From a virus (lineage: Duplodnaviria; Heunggongvirae; Uroviricota; Caudoviricetes): DNA of 4,747 nucleotides. The position numbers are program-made. Location of the stretch: IMG/VR virus record IMGVR_UViG_2671180556_000011; one strand, 5' to 3'. This document shows positions 1 to 3,000 of this stretch, in pieces. Every line of letters begins with the position of its first letter. The first letter of the stretch is position 1.

Positions 1-3000
1 AGTACGAGGTTCACTATGGCTCGCATCGAACAGGAAGTGATGATTTTGTCTGGGGGGAGTAACAGTCGTTTAACCCCAGAATAATCCCGTAACTGAGGTC
101 GCTATTGGCGGCCTTTTTTGTATCCGCGCCACGCCCGGCGCATATCAACCACAGAGCCTTTCGGGGGTGAGCTTACGGAGTGGTCAGTGTGACTTTCTCT
201 GTGGGCAGATCGCTCCCGGGCGTTGGCTCACCCACCCAAAGGAACGTCACGATGTTTGGTATTTTTGGTAAAAAAGCCCGCCGAGCGGCAGTGGAAATTA
301 AAAAGTTTGAGAAACGTGATCTGGCACAGGCGGTTATTAATGCTGCCTATCTGGTGGCCTATGCAGATGGTGAATGTGAGGCTTCAGAGAAAGTGAAGAT
401 CGAGCAGGTCTTGCGTAACCAGCCTGCGTTGTCCGCGTTTACGTCAGAAATTAATGCGATTAGCGCAACCATTATCGGTCAGCTGGATACGAACTTTAAA
501 ATTGGTCGTCGAGCGGCATTGCGTGAAATTGAAGATGTGAAACACGATACGCGTGAAGCGGAAGATGTGCTGGATGTGGCGGTGGCCATTGCGGAGGCAG
601 ACGGCGAAATTGAGCCGGAAGAGCGCAAGGTGCTGGAAGAGATTGCCGGTGTTCTGGGTCTTCGTCTGGAGAATCACCAGTGACGGTAAAACTGCGCCTG
701 GCTGTGGCTGCACTCCTGCTGTTTCTGGTGGTGATGGTGGACTTCAGCAGCCGGATAATGTCAGTGCTGGCTGACGGTGTGCTGGTGGCGGGTGTGGTGG
801 TTGTTGCTTTCCCGTTGCTGAAAAAGAAAGCATCAGGCGATTAGCAGGGTATCAGTTACCCGTTGAAATTTTTAAATGCCTCACAATTCAGGCGGTTGAC
901 TGTTGTCTGGTTTGCGGGGAGTTTGTTAAAAGAAACTGGCATGGTGAATCCCCCTGTGCGGAGGGGCAATCAGCAACTGGTGTTTTGTCACCGACCCTTA
1001 TCCTTTCTGTGCGGGTTCAGGTGCTGATACTGAACTCACCGGGAGGCACCCGGCACCATGCAATGGCACATAGCGCCACTCTCCAGCCCCTCTCCGGAGG
1101 GGCTGTTTATATTGATTTTGTCAGATGTGAGTAAACTCCTTATGGACTTTGTTGTTTTAGTCCATAAGGACATATTTGCAGAGTGCAACGGTTATTAAAG
1201 CATTCATTCAATACGTTATCTGTATTTGTAGGGCATTCCTGGCTGTTTTTGATTAAATTCCAGAATTTTTTATTGAATGGTACTACGTTGTAAATGGTTA
1301 CAGGTAGCACTTTGTTATTGAGCATGATACCTGTGTGAGTCAGTGTAAATATACTTTCAGGAGGTAAGAAAGCATCCGATTGATACCAGATTATTAATTT
1401 TATTTTACTCCATATGACTGAAAAAGATATTCCGCATGATGGCTGGATAACTGTATCAATCACAATCCACTTCATTTAGTTTCCTTGTTTATGTCTTGCT
1501 GGTGATGTTCTGAAAAGTATAAATGATATTTTTGAATGTAAACCATAGAGCAGAATTATTTTTCTGATGTTGTTTATTGTTTATTTAAATGCAGGGTGGT
1601 TTATATCTCGTCTTGTAGTTTACCCATGCATATCTGCTTGATGATGAGGTTTTTATTTAAGGTATGGTTTTGTGTTTTTTCTGTATTACATGTCAGGTAT
1701 TTTAAAGAATTATTTTTCAGATGGTGGAAAGAACCATGGCATTTAAACACTATGATGTTGTCAGGGCGGCATCGCCGTCAGACCTTGCGAAACGACTGAC
1801 ACAAAAACTGAAGGAGGGGTGGCAGCCATTTGGCAGTCCGGTGGCCATCACGCCCTATACCCTGATGCAGGCCATTGCGGCGGAAGGTGATGTCACCACA
1901 CCTGTGGTGGTGAAGCCGTCGGATGGAGAAGGCGCAGTTATCAGCACCACCAGCAACCCGGAGTATTACTTTGTTGTTGCCCTGGCCGGGCAGTCAAACG
2001 GTATGGCGTATGGTGAAGGGCTTCCGCTGCCGGAGACATATGACCGTCCGGACCCGCGTATTAAACAGCTGGCGCGTCGCAGCACTGTCACGCCGGGTGG
2101 TGCGTCCTGTAACTACAATGACATTATTCCTGCGGACCACTGCCTGCATGATGTTCAGGATTTGAGTAAGTTTTCACACCCGAAAGCCAGCGCAGCTCAG
2201 TATGGATGCGTGGGGCAGGGATTACATATCGCGAAGAAATTGTTGCCGTTTATTCCGGCGAATGCCGGTATTCTTCTGGTTCCGTGCTGCCGTGGTGGTT
2301 CTGCATTTTTGGCGGGCGATGAAGGTACCTTCAGCGAATCCACCGGCGCAAGCGAGACCTCGGCACGCTGGGGTGTAGATAAGCCACTGTACAAGGACCT
2401 GCTTACCCGTACTCAGGCCGCACTGAAGGCTAACCCTAAAAATATTCTGCTTGCAGTGGTCTGGATGCAGGGCGAGTTTGATTTGAAACAGGGTGCATAC
2501 GCCACTCAGCCGGGGCTGTTTGATTCCATGGTGGAAAAATATCGTTCTGACCTGTCGGAATTCGGAGGTCAGTGTCTCGGGGGCTCTCCGTCATCGGTTC
2601 CCTGGATTTGTGGCGACACGACCTACTACTGGAAGCAGACTTATTCTTCGCAATACGATGCGGTGTATGGTGCATACAAGACGAAATCCGCAAAAAAAAT
2701 CTTCTTTGTGCCGTTTATGACGGATGAAAACGGGCGAAATGTGGGTACCAACGAGCCGTCAGAAGATCCGGATGTTGCGGATATTGGGTATTACGGAGCC
2801 GGTGGTCGAACGGACGCCAAAACCTGGACGACGGCCGACCGTAAAACGCATTTTGGATCATGGGCACGTCGTGGGATTATTTCCGACCGTCTGGCAACGG
2901 CGATTCTTGTGCATGCCGGGAGAACCGCTGAATTCATTACCGGAAAACAGCCTGATACGGTGAAGCCCACCGGACCTTCCGGTGAAGGTACGGAGAGAGA

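Follow-up and report, generated by a model that had tools for sequence, protein, structure and literature searches.

IraL, one of the four known inhibitors of RssB, determines basal RpoS levels in many pathogenic Escherichia coli and Shigella strains and thereby bears on stress tolerance and adaptation to particular niches. In strain CFT073, deletion of iraL lowers the log-phase half-life of RpoS from approximately 5 to approximately 2.5 min (Hryckowian et al. 2014, PMC4045071). A fragment spanning −100 to +33 complements this deletion, the interaction of IraL with RssB was detected in two-hybrid and pull-down experiments, the promoter was assigned to sigma-70, and iraL and iraM were found to share 58.9% amino-acid identity (PMC4045071). 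The K-12 relative, IraM, contacts RssB through 14 residues that fall in clusters I–III (PMC10844676). Here we describe a 4,747-nucleotide stretch of DNA from a Caudoviricetes virus (IMG/VR record IMGVR_UViG_2671180556_000011; hereafter the window) in which a sharply AT-rich island lies immediately upstream of an esterase gene and carries a 111-aa open reading frame (ORF) on the minus strand. This ORF is iraL.

We consider it highly probable that the island is a self-contained prophage cargo cassette, or "moron", that carries iraL and through it an RssB anti-adaptor stabilizing RpoS. Lambdoid morons, such as bor and lom of phage lambda or stx of the Shiga toxin (Stx) phages, are genes that have their own promoter, lie between conserved phage genes, are expressed from the prophage and benefit the host. 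This reading rests on the near-identity to the CFT073 gene, the match to the family model and to PDB 8TWD, the conservation of RssB-contact residues, the ratio of nonsynonymous to synonymous substitution rates (dN/dS) and the cassette breakpoints. The cassette and the elements of the gene are as follows:

1105–1734, no strand: AT-rich exchangeable cassette (the iraL moron), 630 bp, approximately 32% GC, delimited by composition and by alignments to alternative alleles.
1140–1475, minus strand: iraL coding sequence, 111 aa, with the ATG at 1475–1473 and the TAA stop at 1142–1140, assigned by homology and a family model.
1476–1508, minus strand: 5' untranslated region of iraL, 33 nt, with the Shine-Dalgarno sequence AAGGAA at 1481–1486, placed by its match to published 5' RACE (rapid amplification of cDNA ends).
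1516–1542, minus strand: sigma-70-type promoter of iraL, with the −35 element TTTACA at 1537–1542, a 15-nt spacer and the −10 element TATACT at 1516–1521, read upstream of the mapped start.
1137–1170, minus strand: 3' hairpin of iraL, with a 12-bp stem and a 10-nt loop, predicted by folding and covering the last codons and the stop.

An earlier reading made from the sequence alone (hereafter the sequence-only reading) had noticed the minus-strand ORF and its Shine-Dalgarno sequence but had given the gene no name. The ORF exists and starts with ATG, the Shine-Dalgarno sequence is confirmed by direct reading, and the protein search identifies the gene as iraL, encoding an RssB anti-adaptor. The predicted protein is identical to CFT073 IraL (WP_000871291.1; gene annotated at 1343465–1343800) at 110 of 111 residues, the sole change being T70K, and the two coding sequences agree at 334 of 336 nucleotides. 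The NCBIfam IraM model NF007393 matches with 162.3 bits against a cut-off of 121 and spans residues 1–110; Pfam holds no model for the IraM/IraL family. In a sequence comparison, residues 1–78 matched the IraM chain of PDB 8TWD (8twd_A) with E = 9.3e-32, and the window protein is predicted to have the PmrD-like β-barrel N-terminal domain (residues 1–78) seen in the IraM-RssB crystal structure. Of the 14 RssB-contact residues, ten are identical and four are conservatively substituted: cluster I is kept in full (5/5), cluster II retains three of five (with T13S and L75I), and cluster III two of four (with H63N and I64V). Position 70 falls outside these clusters and is variable in the family, where D, N, R, T and K occur, and the T70K allele would be expected to behave as CFT073 IraL does.

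Among the lineages represented by IraL, K-12 IraM and the homologue in Stx2c phage 1717, dN/dS is 0.10–0.17 at dS values of 1.1–2.0, which points clearly to purifying selection on the reading frame; the minus-strand frame singled out by the sequence-only reading is preserved among its homologues. A spurious ORF in AT-rich DNA is ruled out by this ratio together with the family-model match and the 99% identity to a characterized protein. The published criteria for the IraL subtype ask for nucleotide identity to CFT073 iraL of 95% or more, and of 96% or more in the promoter region (PMC4045071); on these the window gene is classed as IraL rather than IraM, and its nucleotide identity to K-12 iraM is 71%. 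The feature is already known, as iraL has been characterized and is routinely annotated, in E. coli genomes under the name "anti-adapter protein IraM".

The 5' RACE sequence of CFT073 iraL (PMC4045071) aligns to the minus strand of the window with 30 of 32 nt identical, starting at position 1508, and all 44 nt from −45 to −2 of the iraL promoter are identical to CFT073. Promoter-like hexamers on both strands had been proposed near 1496–1542. Those on the minus strand include a real promoter, because the CFT073 start maps to 1508 with the hexamers upstream of it; the plus-strand half of the proposal found no support, a generic promoter scan of 800–1900 having found no site on that strand. The scan returned three sites against 2.5 expected by chance, and we set it aside as evidence, given this chance-level yield and its failure to recover a promoter that has experimental support.

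The palindrome noted at the 3' end of the ORF corresponds to the 12-bp stem at 1137–1170. The 111-nt region around it folds with a z-score of −5.5. CFT073 has this hairpin too; in strain 48 (L008) the IraL variant has it broken, and in the IraM and phage 1717 lineages it differs. This lack of conservation across lineages rules out a conserved terminator, and the hairpin may instead stabilize the 3' end or terminate weakly. The terminator of the small RNA (sRNA) gene to its left, read in reverse, has no U tract. The codons of the conserved C-terminal CPYG motif lie within a short palindrome in all three lineages, with differing hairpins (K-12: GCCCATATGGGC); the corresponding loci are the 3' end of K-12 iraM (L002 6630–6720) and, in phage 1717, L004 4205–4290. 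The additional QQSP tail of IraL is encoded by the loop and 3' arm of a longer hairpin.

The compositional discontinuity described by the sequence-only reading is real and sharp. GC content is 32.4% in 1116–1735 compared with 52.6% in 1–1115 and 53.2% in 1736–4747, and a maximum-likelihood segmentation with two boundaries isolates a deviant segment at 1106–1759 with a gain of 52 nats over a single composition. In 50-bp windows the GC fraction drops from 0.66 (1051–1100) to 0.34 (1101–1150) at the left edge and rises from 0.30 (1701–1750) to 0.56 (1751–1800) at the right. The shift had been placed directly after a terminator, and the terminator hairpin at 1084–1105 does abut the start of the island. 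The TGTTTAT repeats are likewise present: four copies were observed, all within the island or at its edge, against 0.73 expected from shuffles. The cassette contains the 3' spacer of iraL, its coding sequence, 5' untranslated region and promoter, and AT-rich DNA upstream of these. No tRNA or other RNA gene was found in the island: ARAGORN detected no tRNA gene and an Rfam E-value scan returned only STnc100, which lies outside the island. At every family locus examined, the IraM/IraL-family gene and its upstream DNA are AT-rich relative to the flanks.

Comparison with related prophages defined the boundaries exactly. Phage PhiR5_1 (L005) aligns to window positions 778–1104 at 98.5% and resumes at 1735, its right side at 75.5%, while E. 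coli UPEC-245U (L007) aligns to 99–1104 and 1735–4747 at 95.7%. In both, window positions 1105–1734 are replaced by unrelated filler of 233 and 232 bp, respectively, with 48–50% GC. The breakpoints 1104/1105 and 1734/1735 are therefore the same in two related prophages; they fall at the last base of the sRNA terminator stem and 1–2 nt ahead of the esterase ATG. Because unrelated filler occupies identical breakpoints in these two genomes, the island is identified as an exchangeable cassette. The sequence-only reading had proposed looking for an indel at exactly 1116–1735; the alignments reveal a discrete swap with slightly different limits. Simple insertion into an empty site is ruled out, since the alternative alleles hold 232/233 bp of filler and not nothing, and the mode of exchange reads as allele replacement in a fixed slot. 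At the start of the filler (L005 3256–3488; L007 2519–2750) is a strong terminator-like hairpin on the minus strand (GCCCGCGTCTCCCAGCGCGGGC, then T7), a hint that the filler may be what remains of another cargo gene on that strand, or a small RNA. Its 232/233 bp showed no ORF, whatever the length. In strain 48, the island is 89–94% identical to that of the window, compared with 53% for the sRNA tail and 81% for the esterase. The island of this strain is thus closer to the window than its flanks are, showing that the cassette moves as a unit among mosaic prophages. Such sharp presence/absence polymorphism between homologous phages is that expected of a moron. The core of the proposal that this is a separately acquired segment with its own antisense gene was right: the segment is a discrete cassette holding a conserved gene with its own mapped promoter. 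Neither decay of the frame, nor lack of a minus-strand transcript, nor lack of a GC discontinuity, which the sequence-only reading had listed as grounds for abandoning its proposal, was found.

Megablast located the island in 1446 of 5426 complete E. coli genomes, beside the esterase gene or what is left of it, as well as in four phage records. It sits within lambdoid prophages, with the antiterminator to one side and the holin to the other. In a scan of one genome per species, close relatives were confined to Escherichia and Shigella, with distant relatives (31–32%) in two other Enterobacteriaceae assemblies. Among the 5426 complete E. coli genomes, the best matches to the whole window are 97.6% identical over 81% of its length (without iraL) or 87% over 95% (with iraL), and the island alone reaches 99.5%; the mosaic in the window illustrates the modular exchange of segments.

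The mechanism with the best support is as follows. In a lysogen, host RNA polymerase carrying sigma-70 would initiate at 1508 on the minus strand from the TTTACA/TATACT promoter, and the resulting short mRNA would have a leader of 33 nt and a good ribosome-binding site. Its 111-aa product, IraL, would bind RssB, a response-regulator-like adaptor, which, once bound, would be unable to deliver RpoS (sigma-S) to the ClpXP protease. RpoS would then be stabilized in exponential growth, leaving the host primed for stress. The start site, RssB binding and RpoS stabilization have been established for the CFT073 allele, which is one residue apart (PMC4045071). We infer that late, Q-dependent read-through runs antisense across iraL, and the manner in which the iraL transcript ends is inferred likewise.

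Several observations weigh against the reading of the island as an active iraL moron. The iraL promoter was not picked up by the generic scan, and its 15-nt spacer is short. No canonical minus-strand terminator is present, as the 3' hairpin is followed by only three U residues and is not conserved; with respect to the own-promoter and own-terminator organization of a moron, the promoter is backed by the start at 1508, and the terminator is doubtful. T70K separates the window allele from the CFT073 allele, which is the one assayed for RssB binding. The exact mosaic of the window is absent at 99% identity or above from the 5426 complete E. coli genomes. Lastly, the GC content of the island is low (29–34%), and this strong AT bias may leave room for partial repression of iraL by H-NS. 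The sequence-only reading had considered H-NS silencing probable; complete silencing is unlikely, because CFT073 IraL acts in log phase with no added stress.

The alternative that survives best concerns regulation and is compatible with the iraL moron. It takes the cassette for a signal-dependent module of the kind described for K-12 iraM, in which phosphorylated PhoP, at low Mg2+ or mildly acidic pH, would bind a site upstream of the promoter, counter H-NS and turn iraL on. The candidate site is as follows:

1571–1587, plus strand: PhoP-box-like direct repeat TGTTTA-ttgtt-TATTTA (TGTTTAttgttTATTTA), at −63 to −79 from the iraL start, with one mismatch to KGTTTA-N5-KGTTTA.

A match of this quality arises in 5–8% of island shuffles. 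The 1717 lineage has a similar repeat, CGTTTAttcttTGTTTA, equally far from the ATG, and weaker repeats with this orientation occur at K-12 iraM. The AT-richness of family genes and their upstream DNA relative to the flanks also favors such a module, and K-12 iraM is reportedly regulated by H-NS. In addition, K-12 iraM is highly PhoP-responsive and has two proposed PhoP sites (PMC13529223; PMC11825808). Set against this, CFT073 IraL acts in log phase in lysogeny broth with no added stress (PMC4045071), no repeat with at most one mismatch was detected for the strain 48 variant of IraL, and 1571–1587 lies far upstream for a classical PhoP box, which overlaps the −35 element. The noncoding DNA of iraL does not align to the region upstream of K-12 iraM, and homology between the two promoter regions was rejected, as no alignment extends outside the coding sequence. 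We regard control of iraL by PhoP and H-NS as possible but doubtful.

A second proposal assigns a function to the position of the gene. With its fixed antisense placement, following the STnc100-type terminator and preceding the esterase and lysis genes, the cassette could be a switch through which host RpoS responds to the state of the prophage. RpoS would be raised in the lysogen by IraL, which PhoP and H-NS may control; upon induction, Q-modified late transcription running antisense through iraL would shut the gene off, while convergent transcription of iraL would dampen read-through into the esterase and lysis genes. The gene is indeed antisense to the late genes (antiterminator, esterase and holin), but we judge a switch of this kind unlikely.

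The sequence-only reading had offered, as its other option, a long regulatory region controlling the esterase. On this account, AT-rich 1509–1735 would mainly serve the esterase, as its own promoter or as a barrier, independently of Q-mediated late antitermination. Approximately 230 bp of 29–30% GC do lie directly upstream of the esterase ATG, and the complementing iraL fragment ends at −100 (around window position 1608; PMC4045071), leaving 1609–1735 with no assigned role. However, the generic scan of 800–1900 found no promoter-like site on the plus strand, so that a divergent promoter for the esterase was rejected, and the orientation and position of the gene fit co-transcription with the late genes. 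Moreover, the filler allele, at approximately 49% GC, replaces the whole stretch up to 1–2 nt before the ATG, including the ribosome-binding region, and its esterase gene is intact. The esterase gene therefore does not depend on the AT-rich stretch, and we find control of the esterase by this DNA quite improbable; this option of the earlier reading is not upheld.

It is very improbable that the cassette is a silent, decaying remnant, its gene intact but unexpressed (owing, for example, to a defective prophage or to silencing by H-NS) and without physiological effect. In favor of this view, H-NS typically targets AT-rich DNA acquired by horizontal transfer, and many iraL-bearing prophages are degraded, the esterase being truncated in CFT073 and phage 640R1. 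Against it, neither the frame nor the promoter hexamers nor the leader is disrupted, all three being almost the same as in the functional CFT073 allele, purifying selection across lineages is strong, and the island is more conserved than its flanks.

The iraL cassette sits in what is, by gene content, part of the late region of a lambdoid prophage. The neighboring features are:

252–683, plus strand: TerB-family gene, 143 aa, PHROG 632, category "moron", by homology.
680–844, plus strand: DUF3927 gene, 54 aa, with a 4-nt overlap with the TerB-family gene.
910–1114, plus strand: STnc100/PasD-family prophage sRNA, a full-length match to Rfam RF02076 (137.6 bits against a gathering score of 47, E = 2.5e-31).
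1084–1105 and following, plus strand: intrinsic terminator of the STnc100-type sRNA, a hairpin followed by TTTATATT, from a terminator scan; it forms the left border of the island.
1736–3697, plus strand: NanS-p-like sialate O-acetylesterase, 653 aa, with DUF1737, SASA and DUF6645 domains by Pfam; right neighbor, outside the cassette.
Between the esterase and the holin: DUF1378 and DUF826 genes, by homology.
4420–4635: P21-type holin, by homology.

Related genomes have an antiterminator gene upstream of these features and genes for lysozyme and Rz downstream of them. The start of the esterase at 1736 agrees with the equivalent position in the RefSeq annotation of its homologues. The STnc100 element is found upstream of the esterase gene in related phages too; it also occurs after stx2cB in phage 1717 (L004 4030–4241) and twice in phage 640R1 (L006 3061–3254 and 3530–3718). 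A 2026 preprint has linked STnc100 to PasD sRNAs. The TerB-family and DUF3927 genes probably form another cargo pair, placed after the antiterminator/tRNA region and ahead of the sRNA. Relatives have tRNA-Ile/Arg/Arg genes before this pair, whereas the window begins with a different sequence (1–98). Positions 1–120 hold the 3' end of an ORF (stop at 82–84), followed by a terminator-like hairpin and T run at approximately 95–120; this region does not align to most relatives, whose match starts at 96–99.

The practical result of this analysis is that the antisense ORF is correctly annotated as a real and well-understood gene and that the compositional island is its cassette. Three points are added to the description of iraL in PMC4045071: what was called the "potB island" is a lambdoid prophage late region; the boundaries of the cassette are exact and recurrent, with a filler as the alternative allele; and Stx phages carry a third family lineage immediately downstream of stx2c. 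These additions are modest and leave current understanding unchanged.

Among described systems, the closest is CFT073 IraL (formerly ycgW; PMC4045071), which is the same gene: 110 of 111 residues are identical, the core promoter is identical and the leader agrees at 30 of 32 nt. Both loci lie in a lambdoid prophage, in the slot between an STnc100-type sRNA and an esterase gene or its remnant, although the CFT073 locus was termed the "potB genomic island" in that study and not a prophage late region. The window differs by T70K, by two changes in the leader and by an esterase that is intact here and truncated in CFT073.

K-12 IraM, an RssB anti-adaptor induced through PhoPQ at low Mg2+ (PDB 8TWD, PMC10844676), belongs to the same family (NF007393) and is 59.5% identical to the window protein, or 65% over the structured residues 1–78. 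Like iraL, it is encoded by an AT-rich gene adjoining prophage DNA. In contrast to the 111-aa IraL, IraM has 107 aa, its upstream DNA does not align to the window, and its gene adjoins e14, followed by ymgK-ymgL-ycgX. Stress induces IraM, while IraL is active in log-phase cells that are not stressed, and their binding to RssB has been reported to differ (PMC4045071).

The third lineage is represented by gp43 of Stx2c phage 1717 (YP_002274253.1; L004 4252–4575), also found in phage 2851. The slot and orientation are the same, with an STnc100-type sRNA, a minus-strand anti-adaptor gene and an esterase, and the entire island aligns to the window at approximately 72%. In phage 1717 the order is stx2cA, stx2cB, STnc100, the IraM-like gene (minus strand) and the esterase, and the window is matched likewise by many records of Stx2c and Stx2a phages. 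Unlike window IraL, gp43 has 107 aa, being 72% identical to IraL and 65% to IraM, and is encoded directly downstream of stx2cAB; its annotation comes from homology, and no functional study of this protein turned up in the literature searches.

With the classical lambdoid morons, the iraL cassette shares its atypical composition and its presence or absence between otherwise related phages. It departs from them in that a clean terminator is not evident and in that its product regulates host proteolysis rather than being a surface protein or a toxin.

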